Source: Myxococcales bacterium (GTDB lineage: Bacteria; Myxococcota_A; Polyangia; Fen-1088). From it: DNA of 64,000 nt. The notes beneath the pieces are model-generated. The model saw only the letters and a program-made list of their open reading frames with translations. It had not been told where the DNA came from and searched no databases. The translations under genes were made by a program, and so were the position numbers. Shown here one piece after another: positions 9,395 through 29,851 of the stretch (its first letter is position 1; every line of letters begins with the position of its first letter). The stretch is taken from the NCBI GenBank assembly GCA_022184915.1, contig JAGTJU010000008.1:6760-70759 (forward strand), read 5' to 3'.

Positions 9395-11196
9395 CCAAGT
9401 AGAAATGTCCCCATTCCTGCAAAGTAGGAATGTCCCCTTATGGGTATTGAGGGATGGTAGCACCTTGGGGGCGGCGGGTGCGGAGTCGGCCGATCAGCGG
9501 GCCCCCAATGGCCCGCAGGCCGGCGGACCCGTTGCCATTGAGTTGATGCTCATCGCCGCCCCCCGTCAGCGGCCCTCGCACTAGACTCGGCCGCCTTGGC
9601 TCGGGTTTGGATCTCCAATTGTTCGCGGTCGCGTTTGCGCTGCTTACTGGCGTCGTTGTATCGCTTTCGCCGTGCTTTCTGTTCGGCCTCGAACTTGGCG
9701 AAGAAGTTTGCCATTTCAGTCCCGCATTCAGGTGACCCTTGCGTGGCCGCAATGGCTGAAGCCAGTCGGTCAGTGTTGGGGACTGATGGGATCACATCAG
9801 CAGTACGATTGGTTTCTGCGCGCGACTCGCGTAAGTGCGTTTTTTGTCGAAGCGTAAGTTTTTTCGAGGCCAATCGACGCTGGTCGCGCTCCTCCTGGCC
9901 TGCTCGGATGGTTGAGAGCACGGCGCCAAGCCGCTTGTTCTCGACAATCGCACCGGGAGCCACCAGAGGTTGCTTGTCGAGCACGGTATAGGTCAGAAGA
10001 TGGTTGGCGCAGCGGATCTCGACCTGACCATCCGCCGCTTCGAAGAGGCGCACGCGACGTCCGGCGAGGCTGAGTGATTCTGGGCTGGGCACAATCAGGT
10101 ACGTACGCCGCTGATAATGCACGACCAGGTTGCGCGTCATCGTGCGCTCCTCTTGCCAGGTGAAAACCTCCGAAAGGACTTCGCCTGGTTGCACCGGGCG
10201 GTGCGCATCATGGGGGTTCATCGGCGCATGTGCAAAGCGGCGGTTGTAGTCGACCATGAACTCCGGTGCATACGCGTTTGCGTCCGCCATCGTGCTTATT
10301 TCACGCAGACGCATTTCCTTGACGAGCCGGTCCTGCAAGGTCTTGTTCATGCGCTCGACACGGCCTTTGGCCTGCGGCGTATTGGCGCAGATGATCTCGA
10401 TGTTGAGATCGCCCAGCGCGCGACCGAACTGTGTAACACCGGCGGAACGGCCGCTCGAGCCTTCCTGGTTCACGCGGAAGATGCTGTGTTTGTCGCTGTA
10501 AAACGCCACCGGTTTTCCGTAGTGACTTAGATACGACTGCGTGGCGGCAAAATAGTCGAAGGCCGATTCACTCACCACAAAACGCAGTTCCATCAACCGT
10601 CCCGTCGCATCGTCCACGTAGACCAATGCCGTGCAGCGATCAGCGCGCGCCTCGAACCACTCATGGTCGCAGCCATCAATTTGCACCAGCTCGCCAAGAC
10701 ATTGGCGGCGGTGCCGGGGCTGATGAACACGCCGTTTGCGCTCCCCACGGGTGAGCCACAGTCCGGCCTCAGCGAGCCACCCACGGACAGTCTCACGGCT
10801 CGCGTGTATGCCGTGGATCTCAACGAGCTTCTCGTGCGCCAGCTTCGGCCCGAAATCCGCGTAGCGCTCGCGTACGAGAGCCACAACCATTGCCTTCGTT
10901 TCAGCAGCGAGCTTGCGATTGCTCGGACGCCCTCGCAGCTGCGACGTAAGCCCAGCCAACCCTTGCGCTTTGAACTGCCGGCAAAGGCGCTTTACTTGGC
11001 GTACGCTGAGCCCCAGCAGGCCCGCGGCTTTGGACTGTGTCAGACGCTTCTCGAGTACCCGACGGATCATCTCGCCTCGATCGATCTCTCGGTTGGACAT
11101 GGTTACGAATCCCTTCGGCATGAGTCCACCCATGAGGACGCATAACGCGGCTCAAAGGGGACATTTCTACTTGGGCCGAAGGGGACATTTGAACTT
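9394..11196 (-). mobile_element. IS21-family element (type 1), istA only, no istB
   Basis: Ends are TGTTAGGCCCAAGTAGAAATGTCCCC and (rc) TGTAGCGCCCAAGTTCAAATGTCCCC, i.e. TGT… termini with GACATTT sub-repeats. Flanking CGCCGC direct repeat. Only ~150 bp remain between istA and the end, so an IstB ATPase gene cannot fit. Confidence 0.75.
9550..11133 (-). CDS. istA: IS21-family transposase IstA
   Basis: 527 aa with an N-terminal HTH and DDE core (…VQIDGCDHEWFE… DDATGRLMELRFV…). ~50 % identical to the second IstA at 30071-31606. Confidence 0.85.
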   Translation of the reverse strand: MGGLMPKGFVTMSNREIDRGEMIRRVLEKRLTQSKAAGLLGLSVRQVKRLCRQFKAQGLAGLTSQLRGRPSNRKLAAETKAMVVALVRERYADFGPKLAHEKLVEIHGIHASRETVRGWLAEAGLWLTRGERKRRVHQPRHRRQCLGELVQIDGCDHEWFEARADRCTALVYVDDATGRLMELRFVVSESAFDYFAATQSYLSHYGKPVAFYSDKHSIFRVNQEGSSGRSAGVTQFGRALGDLNIEIICANTPQAKGRVERMNKTLQDRLVKEMRLREISTMADANAYAPEFMVDYNRRFAHAPMNPHDAHRPVQPGEVLSEVFTWQEERTMTRNLVVHYQRRTYLIVPSPESLSLAGRRVRLFEAADGQVEIRCANHLLTYTVLDKQPLVAPGAIVENKRLGAVLSTIRAGQEERDQRRLASKKLTLRQKTHLRESRAETNRTADVIPSVPNTDRLASAIAATQGSPECGTEMANFFAKFEAEQKARRKRYNDASKQRKRDREQLEIQTRAKAAESSARAADGGRR

Positions 11197-14687: not shown

Positions 14688-15198
14688 GGGCACGAGTATA
14701 CCCAGCCTCAGTCGCAAGCGCCGAGACGCTTGAGGCTCCACTTGGGATTGCGCCCGTCGAGACCCGCGACGTTGTCCGGATAGTTCGAGTCTTGCAGCCA
14801 GATCCCCAGTTTCCCACCGGGGTGCTCGTACGTGACCGGCGGCAGGAGCTTGCTCGCGGTTACGCAGTCCTCGAACTCGGCGTAGGCACCGCTGCCCGCA
14901 AAGACCCCGACGTTGCCCGGCAAGCCCACCTTCTTGTCCGCGGTGGAGTCACCCACCAGCCACCAGTTGCAGCAGCCACCAGGTGCGAAGGCGTTGCCCG
15001 TCCAGCCCTGCCCGAGGTTCTATTTGTTGCACCCGTCCACGTAGGACAGCATGGCCGCCGAATGAGCCGCCCCCATCGAGCTTCCCTCCGGGGTCGCCCT
15101 CGTCACCACAACCAGCAGCCCGGGACAGCCTCGGAGAACGCCGAGCCGCCACGCAACGCCGCTGTTCGGCTCTGAGGGCCGGCGCTCATGACGAAGAT

Positions 15199-15909
15199 TC
15201 ACGGGCGTGAGCGCCGCACGCACACCAGGTTGCATCCCGAACCCAAGGGCGGATGCACGGTGCAGGCCCAGCTGCCATTGGCACACGTGCAAGCATTACC
15301 GATCTCGTTGCCACACACGTCGCCCGCCGTGCAGGCCGTCCCCGGTTGGTCGGCAGCGCCGCAGGTTCGCGGGCAGTTCGGCAGGACTTCTTCGGGGCAA
15401 GGATTGGCGCATTGGCTTTGGATGCAGTCGACAGGGGGCGCAGGCGCGCAGTCGCACACGGGCCCGCCGCAGCTGGCCTCCTGATACCCCGTGGCAAGGT
15501 CGTCGAGGGTCGCTTGCGTCAGGCTCTTGTTGACCAGGGCATAGCACCCGCCCAACCCGATTCCGCAGTGGCCGTAGAGCACATGGCAGTCGGCGGCCGC
15601 CTGACAGCTCTTGGCCGCTGAGATGACGGCTGTGTAGCCGTCCCTGCGATCAGTGCAGCTCAGGGTCATCGACCCGTCGACAGGGGCGTCACCGCCCGAT
15701 GAGGATCCATCGACCGCGGCGTCGGCGCCGCAGGCGGGCTCGTACTTGCAGTTCCTATCGAACTGCTGCGTGATCTCATTCCACTCGCAGATTCGGGTGG
15801 TGCGAGTGCAGGCTTTTTCTTCGCTGTCGTCGCAGGCGGGTCCAAGAGCTGAAAGAAGGGCCAGGCCGAGCAACCAAGACGTAGAACGGAGGGTCGACGC
15901 TACGTACAT
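15199..15909 (-). CDS. secreted Cys-rich protein; gene appears disrupted downstream
   Basis: Signal peptide MYVASTLRSTSWLLGLALLSALGPAC with >25 Cys. Downstream frames (15020-15292, 14708-14956) continue with protein-like sequence across one frame change and one in-frame TAG (…YVDGCNK*NLGQGW…), so this is probably a decayed longer gene. Confidence 0.4.
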   Translation of the reverse strand: MYVASTLRSTSWLLGLALLSALGPACDDSEEKACTRTTRICEWNEITQQFDRNCKYEPACGADAAVDGSSSGGDAPVDGSMTLSCTDRRDGYTAVISAAKSCQAAADCHVLYGHCGIGLGGCYALVNKSLTQATLDDLATGYQEASCGGPVCDCAPAPPVDCIQSQCANPCPEEVLPNCPRTCGAADQPGTACTAGDVCGNEIGNACTCANGSWACTVHPPLGSGCNLVCVRRSRP

Positions 15910-16197
15910 GATGACCCGAGGTTAGGCGGCTGCCAGCCGCAAAACAAGCGAGTACGCTCGAACGGTGCCAGGTGATGGTGGAGCGAAGGTCACCCTGTCG
16001 TACAGCGCGTTCGACCCCGACTCATGCCCCGAACGCACTGGCGTGGTTGCCTGGCCCGCCCCGCAAGATCCCGCTCTCGGAACGGTGCACCCCGGTCGAC
16101 TCGAGTGCGGCCAGCCGGTTCCGGGCGAGAGTAGGTTTCTTTACAACGTGCCCGCGCCGGGAGGGAACGCTGGCCAAGGGGCGCCTCCGTGCTCCGT

Positions 16198-17136
16198 TCA
16201 ACGGTGACTGCAAAGCGCGCTTCGAAGCCCGGGCTGTCGCCGAACATCCCCATGACCCCGCAACTCGACCAGTCCAAACGACCAGCGTCCACCTGGATGA
16301 AACCCGATCTCCACCTCGGCAACATCGCCTGGGTCCACGACTGTGCGAGGAAGCTTCGGAAACACGACTTGGCTCCAGTGAGTGGGAGGCGCATTCGGCG
16401 CCGTCGACAGCTCGACGCTGGGAGACAGCCTCGCCCAAAAGGTGCCCATGATGCCGTCCAGAACACCCGGCCTGTCAATTGGGCAGACAACCCTTCGAAG
16501 AAACCTGCCGCTGGTCGATTCGCCGAGCTCGAAGTGCATGAATGGAACGGTCGGTCCCAAGGCCCGGGCCTGTCGACAGGCTTCGACCACGTAGGGCGAT
16601 GCCTCGTTGACCAGCACCGCTTGCTGTAGGCGGCGAAGATCGAAACCAGCGACGTTGGTCCAGCACTGCCCATGCGTAGGCAGCAACCTGTGCCTCAGCC
16701 CTTCGTGCTCGATCGGGGTCAGCGCGAGCGCAAGTTCTTGCGGGATCATGCGGCCGCCAGGCTTGAGAAAACGGCGACGTGCATCGTGAAGGTACTCGAC
16801 GACGAACTCTTCGAGCGCAAACTGTCCGAATAGTTCCGAGACGACGACGTCAGCGCGTTCCGGCAGGTCGACGGCGAGGGAGTTTGCAGAGACCCACACG
16901 ATTCGATCGGCCAACTGGTTGTCTTGCGCGATGGCGCGCCCGAGCTCGCAGTAGGTGCCCTGCTCGATGGCGTAAACGCGTCGTGCCCCGGCCCGGGCAC
17001 AGAGCAGCGAGAGCAGTCCGAATCCGGCCCCCACGTCGACGACCACGTCGCCCTTTCTGACTTGCTCCCGGATCGCGCGGCCGTAAGCATCCGTCCGCTC
17101 GAGGTCGGCCACGTATCGTCCGAACTCACGCAGCAT
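16198..17136 (-). CDS. PRMT-like (protein arginine N-methyltransferase family) class-I SAM methyltransferase
   Basis: Start at internal Met MLREFGRY (TAATG junction with the kinase gene). Motif I VVDVGAGFGLLS, post-I VYAIEQG, double-E loop SELFGQFALEEF and THW-loop THWSQVVF are all in PRMT order. Confidence 0.65.
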   Translation of the reverse strand: MLREFGRYVADLERTDAYGRAIREQVRKGDVVVDVGAGFGLLSLLCARAGARRVYAIEQGTYCELGRAIAQDNQLADRIVWVSANSLAVDLPERADVVVSELFGQFALEEFVVEYLHDARRRFLKPGGRMIPQELALALTPIEHEGLRHRLLPTHGQCWTNVAGFDLRRLQQAVLVNEASPYVVEACRQARALGPTVPFMHFELGESTSGRFLRRVVCPIDRPGVLDGIMGTFWARLSPSVELSTAPNAPPTHWSQVVFPKLPRTVVDPGDVAEVEIGFHPGGRWSFGLVELRGHGDVRRQPGLRSALCSHR

Positions 17137-17756
17137 TACGTCCACTTGACAGCTCCTGGCGGTTTGACGAAGGCCTTGATCGCGCGTGCGTAACGGGACC
17201 AATCCTGGCGACGGGTATCTAGGTGCAAGAAGGGGAGGCGTGTCTTCTTTAGTCCGTCCCATCGGTGCGCCTGCGACCAGCGGACGGCTTCGATTGCAGC
17301 TTCTCGGGAGCCGTACCATGCGTCCATGTCTTGGGCCCACTCCAGCCTGTCGGGGCGCTCTATCGAACGTGTCTCCGCAAGCTCGGAAGGAAAGGTCAAC
17401 AGAACGAGAGAGGCGTCGAGCGCTTCGAGGCGCTCGTCGTATTGGTCGAGAAGTTCCCACCGAGGAAAGAGGGCGTAGGCCGTCAGGTGAAACCGCTCAA
17501 CCAAGAGCAGCCCCGCCGCCCCTTCGTCCCGGTGTCGTTCGATTCTGGCGAGGACCGCGTCGAGGGCCTCAAACCTGGGCCTCTCCCTCCAGGCGGGGTT
17601 GCGCACCTGGTTCATCAGGTCCCCAAGTGTGTCCTCCTCTGGGATGAGCGAGGGTCGATGGGAAAAGCAGCTCTCCATCGCGCGCAGAACCGACGTCTTT
17701 CCCGCCCCCGTGACGCCTTCCAGAATCAGAACGGAGCTCAATTGGGGGCACCCCAC
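17136..17756 (-). CDS. P-loop NTPase/kinase (nucleoside/nucleotide-kinase-like)
   Basis: Walker A ILEGVTGAGKTSVL near the N-terminus. 206 aa. Translationally coupled on both sides. Confidence 0.55.
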   Translation of the reverse strand: MGCPQLSSVLILEGVTGAGKTSVLRAMESCFSHRPSLIPEEDTLGDLMNQVRNPAWRERPRFEALDAVLARIERHRDEGAAGLLLVERFHLTAYALFPRWELLDQYDERLEALDASLVLLTFPSELAETRSIERPDRLEWAQDMDAWYGSREAAIEAVRWSQAHRWDGLKKTRLPFLHLDTRRQDWSRYARAIKAFVKPPGAVKWT

Positions 17757-18532
17757 AGCAGAACGTCGTTGAGACGCGGAACCGCTCGTTCCAGAACGGT
17801 GCGCTCGATCTCACTGAGCTCCGGATGCCAAAGATCCACCAGCATGAGCCCTCTCCAAACGTCGCTCGTGTTGACAGACTCGTGGTAGTAGCTGCTGTCG
17901 GCGGCCATGCATCGTCCATCGATCCAGGTGCGTCGTTGACCCCCGAAGCTGATCCAGGCTCCATCCGAGAACAGGGGCAAGTACAAAGTGACCACGAAAT
18001 TCACCTTGTCACTGTGTTCCTTGATCCGGGAGTGAGGCCCGAGGAAGGACATGAGCGCCTCGCGCGCGGGAGGAACCTCATCGAGGGTGCGCAGCGCAAC
18101 GGGTGCCTCCGCCGCTGTGGAGGGGACGCGGCGAAGGTGGCGTTGCAGGTAGTATCCCCTCCACTCACCCTCGAGCGGCGATTGCGGGTCTTTCGCCGGG
18201 CTGCTGCCAGATCGACCCGGATGTGAACGGAAGACCCACGGCTTGCTCAGAAGCCGCACCGCCTCTTCCCGAATGAGGGGGAACCGGCTCTCGAGACGTC
18301 TCGCGAGCGGAAAGGCATGCGCATCCCACCAAGGCCTCTCTGTGAGCCCTGGTACGTACAGGCGGGAATGCAAGGCGCGTTGAGGGCCTGGGTCGGGTGG
18401 GGTAGCCTCACCCCTGGCCACGGCGAAGAATACCTCGAGCCGCTCGAGTTCGCTCCCAGGATAGCGGGCGCACGACTCGGCCCAAAGTGCGTCGGCAGAG
18501 CGCTTCAATTCGCGGGCTTGATCTCTCATCAC
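17738..18532 (-). CDS. aspartyl/asparaginyl beta-hydroxylase-family Fe(II)/2OG oxygenase
   Basis: GYYLQRHL…HSDKVNFVVTLYLPL…GAWISFGGQRRTWIDGRCMAADSSYYHESVN…LVDLWHPEL follows the Asp_Arg_Hydrox (AspH/LpxO-like) cupin pattern. Confidence 0.7.
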   Translation of the reverse strand: MMRDQARELKRSADALWAESCARYPGSELERLEVFFAVARGEATPPDPGPQRALHSRLYVPGLTERPWWDAHAFPLARRLESRFPLIREEAVRLLSKPWVFRSHPGRSGSSPAKDPQSPLEGEWRGYYLQRHLRRVPSTAAEAPVALRTLDEVPPAREALMSFLGPHSRIKEHSDKVNFVVTLYLPLFSDGAWISFGGQRRTWIDGRCMAADSSYYHESVNTSDVWRGLMLVDLWHPELSEIERTVLERAVPRLNDVLLWGAPN

Positions 18533-18533
18533 A

Positions 18534-19382
18534 TCAAGCCTGTCGGATCAGGTGGTTCACCACGCCTGGACGCACGAGATTGGCATGGAAGGCTGCGTTT
18601 CGCACCTGGAGCCGCTCGCACGGGGGTACGAAGAGCGTGGTGTTGTAGGTAATCTTGTCGCCGCTGGAGGCCAACGCCGCCAGCGGCATCGAGATTCTGA
18701 CCTCCCGGTGAGGGGCACCCATTTCGCACTCGACCAGCTCGACCATGTGACCTGGAGGATAAAACCCCATGAGGTACTCGGCCAAAGGCCGCAGCCGTTC
18801 GGCATGGTTCGGCGTTACGCGGGTGATGAATCCCGACCCAAAGCAACCAACTTGGAAGATCAATAAAGGAACATTGCGCATTGGTTGCAGGGCGTAGGAG
18901 ACCATGCGGTTGGCGTCCAGAACCTGAAGGCCAGTGTTGGCGATGTCAAACGGCATCGTCGTGAGGAGCGTGTCGATGGCAGACAGCGCCGGAAGCACCC
19001 GAACCGAGACGCCGTACTGTGGGGCATGCTCGACGAGAAGATGTGTTGGTGAAACGTAGATGGACGGGTGACCCATCACGACGAGAACCACAGAGGCGTG
19101 GCGCAAACCCTCCCCGATCAGGAACGAAACGATCCGACCGTACACCTCGAGGTCGAGATCCCCTTCGCGATAGAAGTCGATCAAGCTTCGCGTGTTGGCG
19201 TTCAGACGCCGAAGGGCAGCGACAGCTTCCACGCCCGACACGAGGTGATAGACGACGTCAGCCTTCGCGACGACGTCAGCGGTCTCCAAAGTCGTATGGT
19301 GGCTGCCAAGCATCCCGGCGCCGCAAATGATGATCTCGTGCCGTTTGGACATGTTCTTGGTCTCAGTCTTCGGCTCAGGCAT
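18534..19382 (-). CDS. tetrapyrrole-methylase-family (TP_methylase fold) SAM methyltransferase
   Basis: HEIIICGAGMLGSHHTTLETADVVAKADVVYH (the GxGxG…T…A…ADVV opening) and the later VVMGHPSIY (GDP-loop equivalent). 282 aa. Confidence 0.6.
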   Translation of the reverse strand: MPEPKTETKNMSKRHEIIICGAGMLGSHHTTLETADVVAKADVVYHLVSGVEAVAALRRLNANTRSLIDFYREGDLDLEVYGRIVSFLIGEGLRHASVVLVVMGHPSIYVSPTHLLVEHAPQYGVSVRVLPALSAIDTLLTTMPFDIANTGLQVLDANRMVSYALQPMRNVPLLIFQVGCFGSGFITRVTPNHAERLRPLAEYLMGFYPPGHMVELVECEMGAPHREVRISMPLAALASSGDKITYNTTLFVPPCERLQVRNAAFHANLVRPGVVNHLIRQA

Positions 19383-21270
19383 TCACCACTTCCAGTCTTC
19401 GTTTCGAGACCGCTTTGGGCGCGATCTGCCGGTCCTCTGCTATCGCCCCCCAGGGCACCGCGAGCCCAAGGAGCTTGCCCTTCTCGACGAAAACGAGCTT
19501 GTTCTCCATCCAAGACGAGATCCACTCGTCCATGACAGCCGCTTCGATGCCGGGGAATCTGCGTCGCAGCTCGGCGATCGAGATGATCCTTTCACATTCC
19601 AAGTACACGTCCCGCTCAGGGCCCCTCAGCCAGTGAAAACGTGCATTCTTGCCGCGAAAGTCTCGGATCTTGAGATAGTCCCGTCCGTCTTGCATGGAAA
19701 GCAATAGGTTTCCCTCCACGTGAGGTCGCAGTGAGTCGTAGTGATTCCGCCACTCCCGCAGGGCCTCTTTCACCTTTCGCCAAAGGGGGCGAAGCGCGTC
19801 CAACTGGGCGCTGTCGAAAGACTTCTCGGTCAGGAAGAGCCGTTGGTTCAGGTCCGGCGGCAAGAGCATGCCATACATGTGATAGTTGCGGACGTTGCGG
19901 ATTCCGAACGTCTCTGGTGCCTTGTATGCTGGTGCCTGATACACCAGCGAGAAGTCGGCGATGTCAAGCGGTCTATAGCCTCGCGCGAACGCGATGTTCG
20001 TCAGTGTTTCGGCGATGTCTGCTTCGTCCATGCCCGGGTAGTCTACGATCAAGTTTGCCGTGTTCTTGATGCCGTATTGCTCACAGAACTTCATCGCCTG
20101 CAGATTCTGTAAGGTCGTCGTTCCCTTCACCATCTTCTCGAGAACAGACGTCGAGAGCGCTTCTATACCAAACTGCACCACACGGGCTCCAGCGCGGCTG
20201 AGTCGTCGAATCTGGTCGGGGTGTACAGACGCACGCGCTTCCATCCAGAAGTCGAGGCCGCCACCGATCGCGGTCAGTGCCTCGATGAACCCATCCGCTT
20301 CGCGGTGTCGAAGGATATTGTCGACGACGGTGAAATCGGGACACTCGTACTTTCTTGCGAGTTCGCGGATATCTTCGATCGACTGCTGGACGGGTTTCTC
20401 CCGATACCCATGCCATTGCAGGTTTAGATTGCAGAACGTGCAGCTCAGCATGGGGTCGACATGGCTTCGGTCCCACCAGCACCCCCTGCTGGTCTCTACC
20501 GGTATACGGATGCGGCCGATTTCCTCCTGGGAGTTGCCGCAGGAACGCAGAGTGCGAAAGTATCCGTCGTAGTTGGGTGGAGGTAGATCTGCCATGTTTG
20601 GGAGTTGGTCAACCTCGCCGAAGGCCGCCTCGGGTGAGTTGCGATGTACGACCGCCTTGACCTCCACAGTCTCGCCAGGGGCTGTCTTCTCCAAAGCCGA
20701 AGTCAGATTCAACAGGGGACTCTCGCCTTCACCGTTGACGACATAGTCCAAAAATGGGAACTCCTTTAGCAGAGTCTTCCCGATCAGGTTCGTGCAGCTT
20801 GGACCTCCCAGGACGATGTCCGTGGAGGGGGCTCTTCGCTTGACTTCGCGTGCGGCGAGCAGGCTTGGAATCATCTGGGCGAAAACCACGCTGAAACCCA
20901 CGAGCCGATATTGTGACCAATCAGTCCGGTCGAGCCTGTCGAGCAGGCTCGACCGTAGGGTCTCGATGACGCTTCCGAAGTCTAACTCACGGAAGGCTGG
21001 ATCGCTGTTTCGCGACGATTCGAGATAGTGGGCGATGGCGTTCGCGCGCTCGGGAAAGAAGATGTAGGCGAACAGGGCTTCGCCGACCCAGCTCACCGAG
21101 ATTCGCTTGGCCAAATGGATCCCGACAGCATCAGCCAACTCCAGGAACAGCTCATACGTGTCCACTTCGATGTCGGGACGGTGTCGCTCCATCCAGGCCT
21201 TGAGGGTTCCCAGTTGAATCGATGGGCTTAGCGGATCCTGCCAGGGCATCGAGATGAGGGCGATGCGCAT
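19375..21270 (-). CDS. B12-binding-domain radical SAM enzyme (class-B rSAM; RiPP-type C-methyltransferase-like) with non-canonical Cx12Cx2C cluster motif
   Basis: N-terminal Rossmann-like B12-binding region (MRIALISMP…). The rSAM core ETSRGCWWDRSHVDPMLSCTFCN is spaced Cx12CxxC instead of CxxxCxxC. 631 aa. Confidence 0.7.
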   Translation of the reverse strand: MRIALISMPWQDPLSPSIQLGTLKAWMERHRPDIEVDTYELFLELADAVGIHLAKRISVSWVGEALFAYIFFPERANAIAHYLESSRNSDPAFRELDFGSVIETLRSSLLDRLDRTDWSQYRLVGFSVVFAQMIPSLLAAREVKRRAPSTDIVLGGPSCTNLIGKTLLKEFPFLDYVVNGEGESPLLNLTSALEKTAPGETVEVKAVVHRNSPEAAFGEVDQLPNMADLPPPNYDGYFRTLRSCGNSQEEIGRIRIPVETSRGCWWDRSHVDPMLSCTFCNLNLQWHGYREKPVQQSIEDIRELARKYECPDFTVVDNILRHREADGFIEALTAIGGGLDFWMEARASVHPDQIRRLSRAGARVVQFGIEALSTSVLEKMVKGTTTLQNLQAMKFCEQYGIKNTANLIVDYPGMDEADIAETLTNIAFARGYRPLDIADFSLVYQAPAYKAPETFGIRNVRNYHMYGMLLPPDLNQRLFLTEKSFDSAQLDALRPLWRKVKEALREWRNHYDSLRPHVEGNLLLSMQDGRDYLKIRDFRGKNARFHWLRGPERDVYLECERIISIAELRRRFPGIEAAVMDEWISSWMENKLVFVEKGKLLGLAVPWGAIAEDRQIAPKAVSKRRLEVVNA

Positions 21271-21306
21271 GCGAATTGTTCCTTGGTTTGGGGTGTTTCG
21301 GTGGGC

Positions 21307-22008
21307 TCAATGACGTCGGGCGGGAACCAACAACATCGCATCCTCGATGTTCGCCCGTAGCCAAAGATCGTCCCGTGCCAGGGGCATGGCAAGTAGGGAA
21401 TCTCGTGGCGCCGCGGCTCCCGCGCGGTAGACGTGAACCGTCCAGTCGGCCCCCCACGTGTGGATGAGGCGCGTCGCCAGGGCAAGGCGGCCACCCGGAG
21501 GCACGTAAGCTGTGTTCCACAGCGCCAAAGACACGCGATGGTCGAGCTGGTAGCCATGATCGAGAACGTCGCGAGCGTCTGCGATCAGCGTGGCGGGTCG
21601 AAGAAGATCGTTGCCCAAAAGGCCTGCGTAGTTGTCGAGCGCCGAGGGCGCGGCGACCACCTCGAAGGTCACGTTCTGCTGCGCCGCCACAGCCGCGGCC
21701 ACAGGAGTGAAGGGGTTGCCGAAGCTAGGATTACCCAACACGGCGACCGCCGCTCGCTCGTGGGCCCGTGCTGCAGAGACCGCGAGCTGAGCGGCTTTCG
21801 CCGTCACTCCAAAGGGGCCGGCGTCTCGGAAGACAGCCTGGTCGAGGTTGATGGCCGTTGGCGCCAATCGATGAAGCCTTTGTGACAGAACGGGCGGCAA
21901 ACCGAAGTGTCCCACCCACCTGCATTCCGACAGCGTTCGCGCCCCTTGCAGAGTCAGCTGATCTCCGGAGCCAAATCCAAGGCCGATCACGGAGAGCATC
22001 GAGATCAC
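21307..22008 (-). CDS. second tetrapyrrole-methylase-family SAM methyltransferase
   Basis: GTG start. MLSVIGLGFGSGDQLTLQGARTLSECRWV and AVLGNPSFGNPF (GDP-loop) fit the TP_methylase fold. 233 aa. Confidence 0.6.
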   Translation of the reverse strand: MISMLSVIGLGFGSGDQLTLQGARTLSECRWVGHFGLPPVLSQRLHRLAPTAINLDQAVFRDAGPFGVTAKAAQLAVSAARAHERAAVAVLGNPSFGNPFTPVAAAVAAQQNVTFEVVAAPSALDNYAGLLGNDLLRPATLIADARDVLDHGYQLDHRVSLALWNTAYVPPGGRLALATRLIHTWGADWTVHVYRAGAAAPRDSLLAMPLARDDLWLRANIEDAMLLVPARRH

Positions 22009-22009
22009 G

Positions 22010-23005
22010 TCACTTCCACCTCACCCCGTCCAACTTGGCTCCGGTGAGGATGGCCCCATCGAGATTTGCACCACGGAGGTCCGAATTGCTCAGGTTGGCC
22101 TCCGTCAGGTCGGCGCCTGCCAGACTGGCGCCACGAAGATCCTGGTTCGAGAGGTCCGCACCTTTGAGGACAGCGCCGCGGAGCTGAATGACGGGGAAAC
22201 TGGGTGTCGCCATCGCTGCCTGGTAGGCCGCCGCAGCCGCGTAGAAGGACGGGTCGATGGCGGGTGCGCAGCGAACGGCGGCTGGGTTGTAGAAGGACGG
22301 GTCGATGGCGGGTGCGCAGCGAACGGCGGCTGGGTTGTAGAAGGACGGGTCGATGGCGGGTGCGCAGCGAACGGCGGCCGGGTTGTAGATGGACGGGTCG
22401 ATGGCGGGCGCGCAACGAACGGCGGCCGGGTTGTAGATGGACGGGTCGATGGCGGGTGCGCAACGAACGGCGGCCGGGTTGTAGAAGGACGGGTCGATGG
22501 CGGGCGCGCAACGAACGGCGGCCGGGTTGTAAATGGACGGGTCGATGGCGGGCGCGCAACGAACGGCGGCCGGGTTGTAAATGGACGGGTCGATGGCGGG
22601 TGCGCAACGGACGGCCGCGGGGTTGTAGGCGTCCTGGGGCGGGTATCTCGTAGGTTGCTCCAGAGCACCTAGGTGTGGATCTACTTTGAATTCCTTTTCC
22701 TGACTCATCACGTTCTCCTGAGCGGCAATGGGATTTGGGTAGGGATATTCGGCATGCAGAAGCTTGCCCGTCTGCGGATCACGGACGTATCGGGTTCGGG
22801 AGGTGGTCTCGACGATGCGACGGTGTGCGTCCAGCGCGCGACGAGCCACTTCCCAGTCGATCGCGCGCAATGAGGCCAGTTCGCGACCCGTGAGGCCAGC
22901 CCTGCCGGCCGCGTTTTCGGTCCTCGCCAAGCGCTCGAGGGTGTCGAGGTCGATGCGCTCCAACGTCAGCTCACTGAAGAGCCGCTGCAGATTCTCCAGG
23001 CTCAT
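22010..23005 (-). CDS. repeat protein / candidate multi-core RiPP precursor: ~100-aa N-terminal domain, 8 tandem 16-aa repeats [15 protein letters not shown](I/F), C-terminal pentapeptide-repeat domain
   Basis: 331-aa ORF. There is an internal SD-like AGGAGAACGTG-ATG (Met at ~22703) just before the repeats. The repeats occupy ~22241-22630. The C-terminus [45 protein letters not shown] forms A(D/N)LxG pentapeptide repeats. Confidence 0.6.
22241..22630 (-). repeat. tandem array of 8 near-identical 48-bp repeats (coding)
   Basis: GTAGAAGGACGGGTCGATGGCGGGTGCGCAGCGAACGGCGGCTGGGTT repeated 8 times with 0-3 substitutions. The three long alternative-frame ORFs over it (22005-22607, 22105-22668, 22204-22653) are artefacts of the repeat. 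Confidence 0.9.
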
Positions 23006-23020
23006 GGCGTGGCCTCAGCG

Positions 23021-23917
23021 TCAGGCGGCGCGGGCGCGGGTCGCCGCCGGGAAGAGATCGTTTAGGATCTCGAGGTTGTGGAAAAGGACCCAGGGCTCTG
23101 CCCCGATTGTCTCGGTGTATACGGCGCGAAGGTTTGTACAACGTGGAATCACGTGTTGGAGGGCTTCGACGGTGATGGGGTTGAGGGGACCCGTGTAGTC
23201 GTCGACCCAGGTGAGGTGGGCGGGATCTCCGAACATGCCGCCGGCGGTGTTGATCTCTCCGACGTGACTCAAGGGGAATTCGTCGATGCGATCGAGGAGA
23301 GGGCGTCGATGAAGCAGGTTGTAGCTGAAGAAGTGGCCCACATCGAAGTTGAGCGTTGCGCCCGTGGCTTCCACGAACGAACGGAAGAACGTGGAAAGGT
23401 GCATCTCGTCCGGTCCGGGCATGTAGAAGTGCGGAACCTCTGGGAAGAGCGACACCGGTACTCGTTCGCTCACCTCGCGCATCCGTCGAATACAAACCGA
23501 GAGGCATTCCTCCGTGAGGAAGGGCTGCACGTAGTTGGGGTGGCCTTGCGGACGAGAGCGAGCGAAGTTGGTGACTATGACGTCTTCGGTGGCCCACTCT
23601 GGCCGCCAGATGTCGACGATCTCATGGATTCTGCTCCAGTTCGCCGTGATCGTCGTACCATCGAAGGGAAGCTCGAAGTCCCCGCTGGCGTGCCAAACGT
23701 ACTTCAATCCTGCGGGAAGTTGGGCCTTTAGCCGCTCCATGAAACCGCGGGAGTAGTTCTCGTAGGCGTAGACCGTCAGATACTGACAAAGGCCGCGCCG
23801 GTAACACTCGGTTACCACGTCAATGACCCCTGGCTCGCACAAATCGTTCGCCACACCCACGCCAAGCGCTCCCGCTTGGATCCGACTCGAATCTGACACT
23901 CCAAACACCTCCGGCAT
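23021..23917 (-). CDS. DUF692/MNIO-family enzyme, first gene of the tailoring operon
   Basis: 298 aa. GVGVANDL…VIDVVTECY… YVWHASGDF… TLNFDVGHFFSYNLL… LSHVGEINT align block-by-block with the DUF692 domains at 3454-4869 and 40012-40956 and with the MbnB pattern. Confidence 0.65.
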   Translation of the reverse strand: MPEVFGVSDSSRIQAGALGVGVANDLCEPGVIDVVTECYRRGLCQYLTVYAYENYSRGFMERLKAQLPAGLKYVWHASGDFELPFDGTTITANWSRIHEIVDIWRPEWATEDVIVTNFARSRPQGHPNYVQPFLTEECLSVCIRRMREVSERVPVSLFPEVPHFYMPGPDEMHLSTFFRSFVEATGATLNFDVGHFFSYNLLHRRPLLDRIDEFPLSHVGEINTAGGMFGDPAHLTWVDDYTGPLNPITVEALQHVIPRCTNLRAVYTETIGAEPWVLFHNLEILNDLFPAATRARAA

Positions 23918-24037
23918 CCAGTGACGATGCTATCCGCGCCGGATAATATCTGCGGCTTCGCGCCATGGCAACAGGAAACACGGGCGCGCTTTGCTTGTAG
24001 AACCTCTGGGTGACTCGAAACTAGGAGGGTCCCGAGG

Positions 24038-24214
24038 ATGCGCAAGAGCAGATTCACTGAAGACCAGATGGTCAAGATGCTGCGAGACGCCGACCGGACA
24101 CGCAGGCGGGTCCCAAGATCAGGGCGGTGGCCGCCGACGAAAGCCATCGCCTCAACGACGCCTATGCCCGCATCGCCGCACACGTCGCACAGGGCAACGT
24201 GCCGAAGGTCTAAA
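24038..24214 (+). mobile_element. IS3-family OrfA N-terminal scrap
   Basis: MRKSRFTEDQMVKMLRDADRT… is the standard IS3/IS407-type OrfA start. A frameshift follows after ~20 codons and then a stop. Confidence 0.45.
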
Positions 24215-24349
24215 CGAGCCGCGGGCGGCGAGCGCCCCGATGCACGGGACGAGCCCAGGAGGATCGCGAGCGCCGGACGGAACCTCGGTCACCGGCGAAG
24301 GTGGAGCCTTGGCCCACCACGCCGGTGATCCGTTTTATCTCGTTGCCTC

Positions 24350-26950
24350 TCAGGGCAGCAGCCGACCCAGGTTGATGAGCTGGGTCTCGCCGCTGTTGTC
24401 GTCGACGCCATCGTTGTCGTTGACGATCCAGACATCGCCGGTGCGGGTCACCGCGCTGCCTTCGATCTTCTCGTAGACGGGGCCCGCCGGCCGCTTGAGA
24501 TCAGGCACCAGGTCGCGAACCAGCGTCTTGGTCACGGTGGCGCCGTCGGCCACGCCTGCCAGCGTCACCCGGTAGAGCCGCTTGATGACGGCGTCGGGAC
24601 CGCCCTGATTGTCGCGTTCCACCACCAGGAAGCTGCCGTCACCCAGGCTGCTGATATCGGAGAGGCCCACCCAGCCGCCGTTGGCCGAAGCCGGTGCCTC
24701 GAGCGGGTAGAAGGCGAAGGTCCAGGTGTCCGACACCACATCGTAGATGCCGATGCGCGCGTTGGCATCGCCCTGCCAGACCCGCTGGAAGGCCACGTAC
24801 ACCTTGCCAGCGTGTTCCGACACGCCTTCGTAGCCGAAGCGGATCTGCTTGGCGTTGATGGCATCCGGCAGCTTCACCACCTTCTCGATGACGCCATTGG
24901 CGTTCGTCTTGAACAGGAAGTTCAGGGTGTTGACCGGCCGCGCGGCTTCGCCGACCGTGCCCGCCCCTTCCGATGCGATCCAGAAGCCACCATCGCCCGC
25001 CACGGCAATGCCTTCGGGATCGATGTTCACCGTCTTGTCTGGGTTGATCATGGCCGCCAGATCCGCCTCATCGAAGACGTCTTTGCGGGTGGCGTCGTTC
25101 GCCGGAACGGTGGCATCAGCCAAATCCACGGCCGCCACCGCCTTGAACACGTCGTTCGTGTCGCGAATCGCAATTTCGCGAACGATGCGCGCAGGCCGGA
25201 AGCCCGTGTCGATGGCGAAGATGCGGTTCGCCTCGAAGGCGCTGTCCTCGATGGCGTAGAGCATGTTTCCGTGAATCGGATCGGCTGCCAGGCCCGACAT
25301 GGCTGCCCACGGGATGGGGTTTCCGTTCAACCGGTCGTTCGAGATCAGCGTGGGGTAGGCCGCGGGCGCGGTTTCGTAGGCGTAAATGTTGATGACCGAC
25401 CGCACGAGATCTTCGCGGCTATCCTCTTCGCTGGCCACGACCAGCAGGTTGCGCGATGGGATCGCCAGGGCGCCTTCGGGACCGATCCCGGCAGGCACCG
25501 CCTGCTTGAACACCGGCTTCCTCAGATCGGCCACGTCGTACACGAACACCAGGCTCGAACGCTCGGAGTTCACGAACAAGTAGCGATTGTTCCCGAACAC
25601 CGCGAATTCCACGTTCTCAGGTTCGTTGCCTTTGTTGTCCGATCGGCCATCAGGATAATGCCCGAGGCGCGAAGCCATCACGTCCATCTCGCGACCAGAG
25701 CTGTAGACGACGTTGCCGTTGGTATCGAAAATGGTGAAACCACGGCTGCCGCCAGCCAGGTCGCCCTCGTCCGCCGTCGCGAAGAGATCCTTCGAAAGCC
25801 AGGCCACACCATCGGGCTCTCGGGGCACGTCCATCTTCGTCTCTGTCAACGAGATGATGCCGTCGTCCCTCGTGTCCACGCCCGTGAGGTTCACCTTGCC
25901 GGCGCTGAAGCTGCGCACGATGCTGCCATCGCTCAGCTTCACCAACACGATGCCGTTGTTCTCCTGCAGGCTGACCACGGCGATGTTGTCGCTGTTGATG
26001 TCCACGAACTCGGGTTCGGGATCCGTGGGGGTTTCGATGCCAGCGAGACCGGTGAGCACCACGTCTCGGGTGGTCCAGGCACTGGGCATACCCTCCAGGC
26101 TCACCACCACCAGCTTGCCCGCGGGCAGCTGAGGGATGGCGCCATCGTTCAGGTCTTCGTCACGCTGGTTCTCGATCACGACCGCGGCGTACTTGCCATC
26201 GGGGCTCACGGCCACCGAGTCGGGCTGCCCCCCAAGATCGATCTTGCGCACGGACATCTTCGTCGTCACGTCGACGACGTCCAGCTCGCCCGATACGTTC
26301 ATGAAGCCGGCGCTCTTGTTTACTCCCACGAGGGCGTAGTTGCCCACCACGGCCACCGACGTGGGTTCCCCCGCCAGATCCAGGGTGCCCGCCGCTTTGG
26401 GAGCCCGCGGATCCGTGATGTCCACGAAGCCCACGACCTTGCGGGGGCTGTCCGAGTAGATGAGGGTCATGCCGTCGGCGGAGGCGGCCACGATTTCGGC
26501 GGCGGTCTGCGTATCGTCATCGCAGTTTGCGTCGATCTGGCTGCACACCGGCAGCACGGCGATGCGGTTGAAGTTCTTGCCGGTGTCGACGCTGGTGGGA
26601 GCGCAAAGGAAGGACGTGGAAACGATCTCGGTCGCCTCGAGCTGTCCGTTGCCGTTGGCATCGGCGCCGCTGTCGAAGCGGATGCCGCCGTCGAAGCAGT
26701 GTGCGTCCCCCGTGGCGAGAACGGTCTGCACGGTCAAACCGGAGTGTCCGCTGGCGCCCATGGCACCGGAAGGTCCAGCGGCGCCCGGCGCCCCCATGTC
26801 ACCCGGAGGTCCGGCTTGCCCCGCACCACCAACGGGTCCTGCGGGGCCCGCGGGACCGTTCATTCCGTCTTCTCCATCGGATCCCGAGCATCCCACCAGC
26901 GGGGACAGCAGCAGGGGCACCGCAAGCACGATCTGTTTCAGCCGAAGCAT
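24350..26950 (-). CDS. large lipoprotein with collagen-like G-x-y repeat segment and beta-propeller-like body (phytase-like/choice-of-anchor-type domains)
   Basis: Lipobox LVGCSGS, then GPAGPAGPVGGAGQAGPPGDMGAPGAAGPSGAMGASG, then ~780 aa rich in D/G/N/T beta-strand repeats. The antisense ORFs 24812-26980, 24849-25259 and others are artefacts. Confidence 0.55.
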   Translation of the reverse strand: MLRLKQIVLAVPLLLSPLVGCSGSDGEDGMNGPAGPAGPVGGAGQAGPPGDMGAPGAAGPSGAMGASGHSGLTVQTVLATGDAHCFDGGIRFDSGADANGNGQLEATEIVSTSFLCAPTSVDTGKNFNRIAVLPVCSQIDANCDDDTQTAAEIVAASADGMTLIYSDSPRKVVGFVDITDPRAPKAAGTLDLAGEPTSVAVVGNYALVGVNKSAGFMNVSGELDVVDVTTKMSVRKIDLGGQPDSVAVSPDGKYAAVVIENQRDEDLNDGAIPQLPAGKLVVVSLEGMPSAWTTRDVVLTGLAGIETPTDPEPEFVDINSDNIAVVSLQENNGIVLVKLSDGSIVRSFSAGKVNLTGVDTRDDGIISLTETKMDVPREPDGVAWLSKDLFATADEGDLAGGSRGFTIFDTNGNVVYSSGREMDVMASRLGHYPDGRSDNKGNEPENVEFAVFGNNRYLFVNSERSSLVFVYDVADLRKPVFKQAVPAGIGPEGALAIPSRNLLVVASEEDSREDLVRSVINIYAYETAPAAYPTLISNDRLNGNPIPWAAMSGLAADPIHGNMLYAIEDSAFEANRIFAIDTGFRPARIVREIAIRDTNDVFKAVAAVDLADATVPANDATRKDVFDEADLAAMINPDKTVNIDPEGIAVAGDGGFWIASEGAGTVGEAARPVNTLNFLFKTNANGVIEKVVKLPDAINAKQIRFGYEGVSEHAGKVYVAFQRVWQGDANARIGIYDVVSDTWTFAFYPLEAPASANGGWVGLSDISSLGDGSFLVVERDNQGGPDAVIKRLYRVTLAGVADGATVTKTLVRDLVPDLKRPAGPVYEKIEGSAVTRTGDVWIVNDNDGVDDNSGETQLINLGRLLP

Positions 26951-27376: not shown

Positions 27377-28707
27377 GGGGCTGCCGCGAAAAAAGTCGAT
27401 CGTCTCGTCATGTCGGTACGGTCGGGTGGATGGTGTAGTTCCACTCGCCGTGGAAGACGTTGGGATCGAGATTCACGAGTGCGAGGTCCTTGTCCGAGAC
27501 GCGGCGACCCTTGGCGTAAGTGCGACTGTCGACTCGGCTCTTCACGAGCAGTCCGGTCGTCGTCGTCGTCGCTGCGATTAGATTGACGATGACTTGATGG
27601 GTGACCAGAGGCTTTCCGCGCCAGTTCTGGGTGATGAAGGAAAACAAGCGGTGCTCGATCTTGTTCCACTTGCTCGTTCCCGGAGGCAGATGACAGACGG
27701 TGATGGGGAAGCGCAGGTCGTCGACGAGCTTTTGTAGCTCGAGCTTCCATAGGCGCAGCCTATAGCCGTTGCTTCCACCTCCGTCCGCCGTGATCACGAG
27801 CGAGGTCGCGTTTGGATACCTCGAGGCGCCCATCTCGCTCCACCAGGTGCGGATGCTCTGCACCGCGAATTCCCCCGTGTCGTGGCTCACGCCAACGCTG
27901 ACCCACGCCTCGTTCTTCTGGAGGTCGTAGATGCCGTACGGTGTGGCGCGTCCCTTTTCGTCGTCGACGAAGTCGTGCACGTTGACATCGACCGGATCTT
28001 CCTTCCCGCTGAGCTCGCGGCCGCCGTTCTTGTACGGTCCGACAAGCTCTCGTTTCTTCGTGTCCACAGAGATCGCCGGCTCGTTCGTTTCGAGCTGTCG
28101 ACGGAGTGTCTCGTTGATGTGCTCAAACTGAGCGTTTCGATCTGGATGCTGCGCGCCCTCAAGCCGCTTGCGATTCGCCTGGAGACTGTAGCCGAGCTCC
28201 TTGAGCAGTCTTGAGACCATCTTCATGCTCGTTTGGTGCCCCTGCTTCTTGAGCGCCTCCACGAGATTGCGCTGGCTACGAGCTGTCCACAGAAGCGGCG
28301 ACTCGGGATCTCCGCGTGTCGTCGATTCTACAAGCTTCTTCAGATCCGGAATCAATCTCGGATCCTTCTCGGTTGCCTTCTTGCGCCCGGCGCCTGGTCG
28401 ACGGCTTCGCGTTGGCGGTAAATGCCTCGCCGTCCCGTTTTCGATCGCCCGTACTTCGGCGATCCCGCGCCCCACCACGCTCGGTGCCATACCCGTCGCA
28501 CGAGATGCAGCGACAATGCCGCCGTAGCCAAAAGCGATCGCCTCGTTCGCCACGAATAGCCGCCGAGCTCTCTCTGTCAGACTCCCCTTTATCTTGCCGT
28601 AGCGATCCCGTATCTCGGATTCACGCCGCGATCGTTCCTTGGTCATGCACCTCCAATGGAGATCCTCCTCGCAGATAAAGTCAACCTATTTATTTCGCGG
28701 CAGGCCC
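27377..28707 (-). mobile_element. ISAzo13-family insertion sequence, copy 1 (1331 bp)
   Basis: Terminal inverted repeats GGGGCTGCCGCGAAAAAAGTCGATCG / (rc) GGGCCTGCCGCGAAATAAATAGGTTGAC. It contains a single 412-aa DDE transposase gene. Identical in length and ORF to the copy at 41814-43144. Confidence 0.75.
27408..28646 (-). CDS. ISAzo13-family (DDE_Tnp_ISAZ013-type) transposase
   Basis: 412 aa. N-terminus MTKERSRRESEIRDRYGKIKGSLTERARRLFVANEAIAFGYGGI… and a DDE region. 100 % identical to the protein of ORF 41875-43113. Confidence 0.75.
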   Translation of the reverse strand: MTKERSRRESEIRDRYGKIKGSLTERARRLFVANEAIAFGYGGIVAASRATGMAPSVVGRGIAEVRAIENGTARHLPPTRSRRPGAGRKKATEKDPRLIPDLKKLVESTTRGDPESPLLWTARSQRNLVEALKKQGHQTSMKMVSRLLKELGYSLQANRKRLEGAQHPDRNAQFEHINETLRRQLETNEPAISVDTKKRELVGPYKNGGRELSGKEDPVDVNVHDFVDDEKGRATPYGIYDLQKNEAWVSVGVSHDTGEFAVQSIRTWWSEMGASRYPNATSLVITADGGGSNGYRLRLWKLELQKLVDDLRFPITVCHLPPGTSKWNKIEHRLFSFITQNWRGKPLVTHQVIVNLIAATTTTTGLLVKSRVDSRTYAKGRRVSDKDLALVNLDPNVFHGEWNYTIHPTVPT

Positions 28708-29128: not shown

Positions 29129-29500
29129 CTAACGGCCGATCGCAATGATCTGCTCCAGCGTGTCGCAGGCCGCATCGAAGGGCTCCTGTGCAACCCGCTT
29201 TAAGGGATGCGGTTTGGCATTGCGTGCGCGCCAATCGAACGACTTAGGCTGATGCCCCAAAATGTAGCTTGTCACACCCGTCGCGCCCTTGAATCGCACG
29301 GCGAACGGGTTTGTCTCATTGAACGCAGCCGTGGTCATCGGCAATCCTATGACGATCCCGGTGCGCAGGTTGAACTCGCGCGGAGAAAGCACCACAAGAG
29401 GATGAATATCCTTCATTTCTCTTCCCGCCTGCGGATTGCAATCGATCCAAATCATGTCTCGTCTATCCGGACACCAGGACGCTTTGGGCGTAGCCACTAC
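29129..29500 (-). CDS. mazF: MazF/PemK-family toxin (endoribonuclease)
   Basis: Probable GTG start overlapping the antitoxin TAG. RRDMIWIDCNPQAGREMKDIHPLVVLS…GIVIGLPMTT follows the RGDIV.VDF.P..G.E…RPALVLS…PITS MazF pattern. Confidence 0.7.
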   Translation of the reverse strand, partial: VVATPKASWCPDRRDMIWIDCNPQAGREMKDIHPLVVLSPREFNLRTGIVIGLPMTTAAFNETNPFAVRFKGATGVTSYILGHQPKSFDWRARNAKPHPLKRVAQEPFDAACDTLEQIIAIGR

Positions 29501-29757: not shown

Positions 29758-29851
29758 GTAGATACAAGTATATACACCAAAGCCGGCCGCGGCAAGGGTC
29801 GCACCTAGATGGGGATAGGACGGACAAACACTGCGTCCTATCGCATCAAAA

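Follow-up and report, generated by a model that had tools for sequence, protein, structure and literature searches.

A probable RiPP-type cassette from a Myxococcales bacterium that couples a divergent MNIO enzyme and a borosin-like methyltransferase homolog to a co-encoded repeat protein

Among peptides that are synthesized on ribosomes and modified after translation (RiPPs), the described systems closest to the locus considered here are the split borosins, the MNIO (DUF692) systems and the proteusins. In the borosin N-methyltransferase SonM, Y58 and Y71 form a catalytic pair whose double mutant is inactive, the R67A mutant is likewise inactive, and Y93 plays a minor role (PMC8429565). Duplication of the methylase domain is known from the type IX borosins (bioRxiv 2021.12.24.474128). 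Cys is the target of most characterized MNIOs (table, PMC12452194), and partner-independent MNIOs such as MovX exist (PMC12452194). In the MNIO TglH, the iron ligands are H71, H107, E151, D184, H216, and E258, with N187, D229, and H231 at the third iron (PMC10880893). Here we describe an eight-gene operon at positions 16198-23917 of a 64,000-nt stretch of DNA (the window) from a Myxococcales bacterium (assembly GCA_022184915.1, contig JAGTJU010000008.1, positions 6,760 to 70,759 of the forward strand). Judged from sequence comparisons, it is probably a RiPP-type modification cassette that acts on a co-encoded three-part protein, and its product would be an intracellular modified protein.

All eight open reading frames (ORFs) are intact in the ORF list of the window and run consecutively on the minus strand. 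From the 23917 end, their seven junctions measure +15, +1, +36, -8, +1, -19, and -1 nt; the last is a TAATG overlap in which the ATG of the terminal gene (16198-17136) shares one base with the stop codon of the preceding gene. An earlier note on this DNA had counted nine genes, a number at odds with the eight listed in its own title and not borne out by the ORF list, while the spacing that it gave (-19 to +36 nt, all on the minus strand) agrees with these junctions.

The cassette occurs in ~13 loci of Myxococcota and Oxalobacteraceae (given L numbers where they need to be told apart), and its operon of modifying enzymes is obligately coupled to a protein with constrained repeats that are predicted to be disordered. 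In every locus long enough to judge, the gene order is fixed as MNIO, precursor, a first tetrapyrrole (TP)-methylase-fold protein (TPM1), a B12-binding radical S-adenosylmethionine (SAM) enzyme, a second TP-methylase-fold protein (TPM2) and an AspH-family hydroxylase, and in 13 of 13 loci the precursor gene lies directly downstream of the MNIO gene. The earlier note had named homologous operons without a repeat-containing partner as an observation that would point elsewhere; the partner is present in all 13 of the MNIO-bearing loci. The families involved are tiny and co-extensive. Of 5.8e9 proteins, 19 belong to the MNIO subfamily, with identities of 54% or more, the N-methyltransferase (TPM2) subfamily has 17 database members, and a profile of the precursor's N-terminal domain (N-domain) finds 9 matches. 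The MNIO search also matched the window to a protein of a Myxococcales metagenome-assembled genome with 100% identity. Orthologs are 44-75% identical across phyla and keep their catalytic motifs. When 185,579 species were scanned, each through a single genome, two carriers came up, a Myxococcaceae metagenome-assembled genome and Janthinobacterium fluminis hw3, and a scan of metagenome contigs added one short contig. The flanks of the different loci are unrelated and include type VI secretion system genes, recombinases, AraC regulators, and a PhoD-family gene. A gene for a P-loop protein, seventh in the window, is absent from L012 and L014. The terminal methyltransferase is related to protein arginine methyltransferases (PRMTs) in the window, L002, L011, L013, L014, and L015, and is a Methyltransf_24 enzyme in L001, L004, L005, L006, and L012, several of which are from Oxalobacteraceae.

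The presumed substrate, encoded by gene 2 (22010-23005, minus strand), is a 331-aa protein comprising an N-domain, a linker, eight cores and a pentapeptide-repeat C-terminus. Tandem Repeats Finder detected a repeat at 22241-22628 with a period of 48 bp, 8.1 copies, and 95% matches, within which eight in-frame 48-bp units (22244-22627, minus strand) encode [15 protein letters not shown][I/F], the presumed core peptides. The tandem Cys-containing repeats, eight in number, and the pentapeptide-repeat end had both been recognized in the earlier note. Seven nucleotide positions vary among the eight DNA copies; six of these are third-codon positions, and the sole residue change is I/F. Since 15 of the 16 residues are identical in all copies despite this divergence at the DNA level, selection appears to act on the peptide sequence of each copy, and the pattern argues for purifying selection beyond mere recent duplication.

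Homologs of the repeat protein number ten among 5.8e9 proteins, with further ones in the loci that we fetched, and all share one architecture: an N-domain of ~90 residues, a variable acidic linker with a conserved Met, a P-x-x-Y-P motif, the core array, and a pentapeptide-repeat domain of ~60 residues. Family members carry 1, 4, 5, 6, 7, 8, or at least 15 Cys-containing cores. The single-core members (P0009 and that of L014) give the minimal unit [AV]-[IV]-D-P-x-x-[YF][10 protein letters not shown][IV]-D-P-x-x-Y, so that an (I/V)DPxxY element stands on both sides of each Cys, and the core consensus is ...A-[IV][15 protein letters not shown][IV]-D-P-x-x-Y.... Positions Y1, A4, R7, C8, A9, P10, A11, D13, and P14 are invariant across the family, while position 2 is N, Q, or H and position 15 is S, A, W, T, or L. 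Of the residues that the earlier note matched to the AspH and PRMT families, the Asp is invariant; the Asn varies to Gln or His, and the Arg is invariant also in loci that have no PRMT. The core Ser, too, lacks conservation.

In an AlphaFold2 (AF2) model, the N-domain (aa 1-89; 22739-23005, minus strand), presumably a leader or docking domain, forms five helices and a beta-hairpin with a predicted local distance difference test (pLDDT) score of ~70-85; its invariant positions are L3, L13, T14, A32, L46, W51, H61, Y73, R75, P88, and P92. As its profile, run against 1.84e9 cluster representatives, found its own family only in the 9 matches, the domain is to all appearances private to this cassette family. 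An assignment to the NHLP leaders was set aside, given that matches to the NHLP clan were weak and below threshold and that the same profile search retrieved the family alone. Two proteins of 120 and 106 aa (P0141 and P0142) have the same private N-domain and no RCAPA core or pentapeptide domain, one of them ending in ...EVRDNC. Possibly, these two are fragments or else precursors that bear cores of another kind. Residues 90-271, the repeat region, have no predicted structure (pLDDT ~26-33), and the cores are thus predicted to be disordered between two folded domains; the AF2 alignment was shallow (10-11 sequences), which makes the disorder call indicative rather than firm. From the same model (pLDDT ~30 over 90-271), and subject to the same limit on alignment depth, we rejected the idea that the repeats are a structural solenoid extending the pentapeptide helix and preferred disorder. 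The C-terminal pentapeptide-repeat beta-helix (aa 272-331; 22013-22192, minus strand) matches PF00805 (E 2.8e-19, 68.7 bits) and is modeled with strands every 5 residues at pLDDT 72-90. It has only ~3 coils, far shorter than Qnr or MfpA, and it is kept in all full-length homologs, with an end G[VIA][RK]W[KNT] that reads GVRWK in the window. Within the linker, the in-frame Met100 (ATG at 22706-22708, with AGGAG 6 nt upstream; feature at 22706-22719, minus strand) is a possible internal start. A linker Met at residue 100 or 101, preceded at 3-9 nt by a Shine-Dalgarno-like GGAG or GAGG, is kept in every homolog (L001-L009). Met100 could give rise to a form without the N-domain, or the arrangement could be a mere by-product of Glu codons in the acidic linker.

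Gene 1 (23021-23917, minus strand; 298 aa) matches PF05114 at 34.1 bits against a cutoff of 25, and the profile search proposed in the earlier note thus places it in DUF692/MNIO. It is a divergent member. In NCBIfam it matches best to ApyH (37.7 bits, cutoff 400), BufB scores 23.4 bits (cutoff 310), and a profile of its family matches TglH in the PDB (8hci, E 2.8e-7). In a single hidden Markov model (HMM) alignment covering the central 116 residues, E160 and D192 correspond to TglH E151 and D184, the invariant H195 takes the place of N187, N223 takes the place of H216 in 16 of 18 members (His in the other two), and the positions of D229 and H231 are occupied by T236 and V238; the alignment did not reach the ligands of TglH that lie toward its N- and C-termini. 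Candidate alternative ligands, all invariant, are H76, E111/D112, D231, D239, and E269. The only plasmid match to this MNIO is a 27%-identical DUF692 protein on Streptomyces europaeiscabiei plasmid NZ_CP109155 (L016, 12401-14002). Its surroundings differ, with a YcaO protein, an MBL hydrolase, small ORFs, and genes for LuxE/LuxC-like acyl-protein synthase and reductase, and it appears to be another uncharacterized MNIO cluster.

Both TP-methylase-fold proteins match PF00590, TPM1 (gene 3; 21307-22008, minus strand; 233 aa) with E 2e-13 and TPM2 (gene 5; 18534-19382, minus strand; 282 aa) with E 7e-12. A phmmer search of the PDB with TPM2 returned 25 matches, every one of them a borosin peptide alpha-N-methyltransferase: SonM (E 1.8e-18, aa 18-263 aligned to 5-250), dbOphMA (7e-17), OphMA (2e-15), and also MroMA. 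No tetrapyrrole methylase, diphthine synthase, or RsmI was matched by TPM2 in the PDB. TPM2 and all of its orthologs keep the equivalents of SonM Y58 and Y71, and Y93 is replaced by Met. TPM1, in turn, lacks equivalents of Y58, R67, Y71, and Y93, and its top-clamp loop is deleted; it retains GxG, G[HN]P, and APSA cofactor-type motifs, has no match among PDB sequences, and, at 34-42% identity, is less conserved than any other gene of the cassette. We infer that it is a distant, catalytically degenerate paralog of the N-methyltransferase serving as its partner subunit. The earlier note's hint at borosins thus holds for TPM2, which matches borosins only; TPM1 is without both catalytic tyrosines.

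The four remaining genes encode a radical-SAM enzyme and three proteins of diverse families. Gene 4 (19375-21270, minus strand; 631 aa) matches NCBIfam TIGR03975, named "RiPP maturation radical SAM C-methyltransferase," over profile positions 1-606 of 606 at 375.5 bits (cutoff 281.85); it also matches PF04055 and PF02310, with a conserved C...CxxC cluster. Gene 6 (17738-18532, minus strand; 264 aa) belongs to the AspH/LpxO-family Fe/2-oxoglutarate hydroxylases (PF05118, E 6e-25, 88.4 bits), and its HSD motif and distal H are invariant in five orthologs. Both family assignments agree with those made earlier from the letters alone, as does that of gene 8 (16198-17136, minus strand; 312 aa) to the PRMTs. 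The latter matches human PRMT6 and CARM1 (E ~3e-27 over aa 8-267) across the Rossmann and beta-barrel domains. Its alignment to PRMT6 includes motif I (VDVGAGFG), the double-E loop (SELFGQFALEE vs. SEWMGYGLLHE), and the THW loop (THWSQ vs. THWKQ); it matches PRMT_C at 33.5 bits (cutoff 27) and also PrmA. In three loci of Myxococcota type, a gene for a PhyH-family Fe/2-oxoglutarate dioxygenase is convergent to, and slightly overlaps, the PRMT-like gene (L013, 9274-9825; L014, 5744-6514; L015, 6242-6940). A tblastn search found no counterpart of it in the window, and it may be an optional extra tailoring enzyme. Gene 7 (17136-17756, minus strand; 206 aa) encodes a small protein with the Walker A motif GVTGxGK[ST]. 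It had been called a kinase; the window member reaches the cutoff for CPT (chloramphenicol phosphotransferase-like) exactly, at 22.0 bits against 22, and is the only member to do so, its orthologs matching only the generic AAA_22 and AAA_30. PDB matches were restricted to P-loop segments, none of them informative, and the gene is missing from two loci. We therefore regard it as a P-loop NTPase, possibly a kinase, with an accessory role.

Taken together, these assignments lead us to propose a pathway in which the N-domain and/or the C-terminal beta-helix would dock the enzymes, and the disordered array (1 to at least 15 cores of 16 residues) would be modified copy by copy. The divergent MNIO would oxidatively transform the sole invariant Cys, e.g., to a heterocycle of the thiooxazole or oxazolone-thioamide type. 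The SonM-like TPM2 would N-methylate backbone amides, perhaps as a heterodimer with degenerate TPM1, and the TIGR03975 enzyme would C-methylate an unactivated carbon, with formation of a cross-link less likely. The AspH-family enzyme could beta-hydroxylate the invariant core Asp, and the terminal methyltransferase, a PRMT in the window, could methylate the guanidinium of the invariant Arg, the P-loop NTPase presumably serving as an accessory factor. If the P-loop protein were a kinase, Ser15 could not be its conserved target; the only hydroxyls present in every family member are those of Tyr, or of beta-hydroxy-Asp if AspH makes it. Since Tyr is invariant and the MNIO and B12-radical-SAM enzymes of the pbs pathway act on aromatic residues, Tyr-based chemistry is a live alternative.

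Several observations weigh against this proposal. Every pairing of enzyme with residue, and every chemical step, is deduced from the chemistry of the families. MNIOs also modify residues other than Cys, including by hydroxylation of aromatic ones (PMC12257519), and the same pbs pathway offers an example of a B12-radical-SAM enzyme that cross-links instead of methylating (PMC12257519). If the HMM alignment with TglH holds, it suggests that the metal site of the MNIO is re-wired, which counts against the assigned chemistry insofar as the canonical iron ligands are altered. Among the cassette proteins, Pfam and NCBIfam searches found no MbnC, TglI, DUF2063/BufC-type, or RiPP recognition element partner for it. 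The equivalent of SonM R67 is absent from TPM2, where the side-clamp loop is three residues shorter; a conserved Arg right after Y58 (YREG) might substitute for it. The N-domain has no significant similarity to the borosin-binding domain of SonA, or to any other known leader, in sequence, profile, and fold searches. The core Arg is equally invariant where Methyltransf_24 replaces the PRMT, and the pairing of Arg with PRMT is therefore plausible and unsupported by co-variation. The genes for TPM1, AspH, or the radical-SAM enzyme are split into two ORFs in L002 (10950-11677, 14434-15224), L007, and L013, which could reflect pseudogenization or errors of metagenome or long-read assembly. Finally, the cassette contains no protease or exporter, and none is conserved next to it in the ~13 loci with their differing flanks.

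This last point, together with the strong conservation of the C-terminal domain, is the reason that we favor a modified intracellular protein as the product. The cassette's own product would then be a heavily modified intracellular protein, from which release by unlinked proteases is possible. The RiPP-type pathway of the earlier note stands as to enzyme families and their coupling to a repeat protein, and less so as to its outcome, which may be a modified protein in place of a released peptide. Another possibility, which we hold to be rather unlikely, is a classical secreted multi-core RiPP, whose modified (or cyclized) 16-mers would be excised and exported by genes elsewhere, with the N-domain as leader and the pentapeptide domain as a disposable follower. 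The rapid change in core number, from 1 to at least 15 near-identical copies, is typical of multi-core precursors, the predicted disorder of the repeat region would be compatible with it, and the Tyr-flanked, Pro-rich cores could suit prolyl oligopeptidase-type enzymes, the type that processes omphalotin. Precursors with ten copies are also known from type V split borosins (bioRxiv 2021.12.24.474128). On the other hand, a protease or transporter is conserved beside the cassette in none of the ~13 loci, the repeat protein has no signal peptide, and conservation of the beta-helix equals or exceeds that of the leader, its terminal GV[RK]W[KNT] being nearly invariant, which would be unexpected of a discarded follower.

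The intracellular reading can be carried further, to a "designer" protein in which an array of disordered, modified 16-mers lies between a private docking domain and a short beta-helix. In that case, the 16-mers may bear a Cys-derived heterocycle or thioamide, N- and C-methylation, beta-hydroxy-Asp, and methyl-Arg, and the modified repeats may be a functional surface for metal or redox buffering or, by way of a DNA-mimic-like beta-helix, for targeting nucleic-acid enzymes. The divergent MNIO, with a re-wired metal site, may perform chemistry unseen in its family, and a conserved internal start may add a leader-less isoform. We think this reading unlikely.

It is very doubtful that the enzymes act instead on a small molecule, e.g., a tetrapyrrole or corrinoid, with the repeat protein as a scaffold, regulator, or immunity factor. 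The PF00590 and B12-radical-SAM families do include tetrapyrrole enzymes, weak NCBIfam matches to CbiL and BchE were seen, and the pentapeptide-repeat proteins McbG, AlbG, and Qnr are immunity factors. However, TPM2 matches only peptide N-methyltransferases in the PDB, the radical-SAM enzyme passes the TIGR03975 cutoff and reaches only 65 bits against 481 for BchE, and the MNIO, PRMT, and AspH families modify peptides or proteins; moreover, each repeat copy shows purifying selection at the peptide level, and the coupling of repeat protein and MNIO is strict. On these PDB and NCBIfam match patterns, a tetrapyrrole pathway was rejected. Decay of the cassette as a passenger on mobile DNA, functionless in this genome, is likewise most improbable. 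In favor of it, insertion sequence (IS) elements surround the cassette, its GC content is below that of the rest of the window, ORFs are split in L002, L007, and L013, and carriers are extremely rare, at 2 of 185,579 genomes that each represent a species. Against it, the eight window ORFs are intact with tight or overlapping junctions, the orthologs, at 44-75% identity across phyla, keep their catalytic motifs, the repeat copies differ almost only at synonymous sites, and the frameshifted loci are from error-prone metagenome assemblies.

The genomic setting bears on the origin of the cassette. Its GC content is 0.614, vs. 0.652 in the remainder of the window, and mobile or toxin-antitoxin-type genes lie around it, all on the minus strand (9550-11133, 27408-28646, 30071-31606, 7102-8397, and 29129-29827), namely those for two transposases of the HTH/rve type, a DDE transposase of the ISAZ013 type, a HipA kinase, and a PemK/MazF-like toxin. 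Its occurrence in two phyla, surroundings rich in IS elements, and low GC content indicate that the cassette is a horizontally transferred, self-sufficient module. Just upstream of the operon, an 866-aa ORF (24350-26950, minus strand) combines collagen triple-helix repeats with DUF7151 and a phytase-like/choice-of-anchor I domain; it resembles a secreted surface protein and is not kept beside the cassette in other loci. A 96-aa ORF (24038-24328, plus strand) looks by eye like an IS3 OrfA and has no Pfam match. Downstream by 289 nt, a Cys-rich ORF of 236 aa with a lipoprotein-like N-terminus (15199-15909, minus strand) has no Pfam or NCBIfam match and is absent from the homologous loci inspected. 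A sigma-70-like promoter candidate, TTGCCA-17-TATTAT, lies at 23943-23971 (minus strand), 26 nt upstream of the first ATG. It is the sole such site in 15000-24600, where 1.4 are expected by chance, so that only its position is suggestive. A riboswitch or other RNA leader upstream of the operon was rejected, since an Rfam scan of the whole window gave zero matches. An anti-phage defense system was likewise rejected: PADLOC gave no system, and its lone match linked the PRMT-like protein, by a generic methyltransferase domain, to mad2.

If the proposed chemistry is true, a single operon unites MNIO oxidation, borosin-type N-methylation, and proteusin-type radical C-methylation, which have hitherto been studied separately, and adds an AspH-type hydroxylase and a eukaryote-type PRMT, two enzymes that have rarely or never been tied to peptide natural products of bacteria. 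For enzymology, it would offer a partnerless MNIO with altered ligands and a borosin-like methyltransferase that lacks an "essential" Arg and is paired with a pseudo-enzyme. The system is tractable, in that the substrate is unambiguous, the cassette spans 7.7 kb, and there are cultured carriers, Janthinobacterium fluminis hw3 and Duganella spp. Together with a conserved folded C-terminus, the lack of a protease or exporter also raises the question of how many "RiPP" clusters really yield modified proteins. Interest is tempered by the derivation of all the chemistry from family membership, by the thousands of MNIO clusters that are uncharacterized, and by the extreme rarity of this one.

With the split borosins (SonM/SonA and the multi-core types V-VIII, e.g., RceM/RceA), the cassette shares a stand-alone SonM/OphMA homolog, alignable over its full length and with Tyr58 and Tyr71 kept, and a separate large precursor that has tandem near-identical cores and a helical N-domain. 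The borosin-binding domain of SonA is by description a five-helix bundle (PMC8429565), and five helices are predicted for the N-domain here. In contrast to these borosins, the cassette has no Arg67 equivalent, a Met at Tyr93, an apparently degenerate second methylase, and an N-domain unmatched to SonA, and it adds the MNIO, B12-radical-SAM, AspH, and PRMT enzymes.

Like the MNIO systems (MbnBC of methanobactin, TglHI, ChrHI, BufBC of the bufferins, HvfBC of oxazolin, ApyHI, and PbsCD), it has a PF05114 enzyme gene that adjoins the gene for a Cys-containing substrate. The oxazolin precursor HvfA and related precursors are also long repeat proteins, in which each repeat bears a single modifiable Cys motif (PMC12452194), and the pbs cluster likewise has an MNIO, a B12-radical-SAM enzyme, a hydroxylase, and an Arg-modifying enzyme (PMC12257519). 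The cassette differs from them in that its MNIO is remote from the named subfamilies, is without a partner, and has apparently altered ligands, and in that its substrate carries no signal peptide; the subfamily is not mentioned in a 2025 survey of the MNIO landscape (PMC12452194).

The proteusins, with their NHLP or Nif11 leaders and the B12-radical-SAM C-methyltransferases PoyB and PoyC of the polytheonamides, resemble it in having a full-length TIGR03975 member and an unusually long folded leader. Unlike them, the cassette has a leader that matches only below threshold, tandem repeats as cores followed by a folded domain, and no radical-SAM epimerase, LanM-type dehydratase, or C39 peptidase/ABC exporter. 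Its PRMT-like protein has the Rossmann and beta-barrel domains, motif I, double-E, and THW loops of the eukaryote-type enzymes PRMT1, PRMT6, and CARM1, but is bacterial and embedded in an operon, presumably with a dedicated repeat substrate, and is interchangeable with Methyltransf_24. A 2024 review of RiPP methyltransferases mentions neither Arg side-chain methylation nor a PRMT-type enzyme (PMC11285071).

As the earlier note had maintained, no characterized RiPP class with this combination was found. The searchable literature, including MNIO, borosin, and methyltransferase surveys, holds no description of the cassette, although many subscription papers lie outside it and absence is no proof, and within it borosins and MNIOs are named together only in a general survey of RiPP recognition elements. 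Since precedents exist for each component family and for the multi-core logic, the system is not categorically new; it appears to be a hybrid RiPP-type cassette in which the combination is new.

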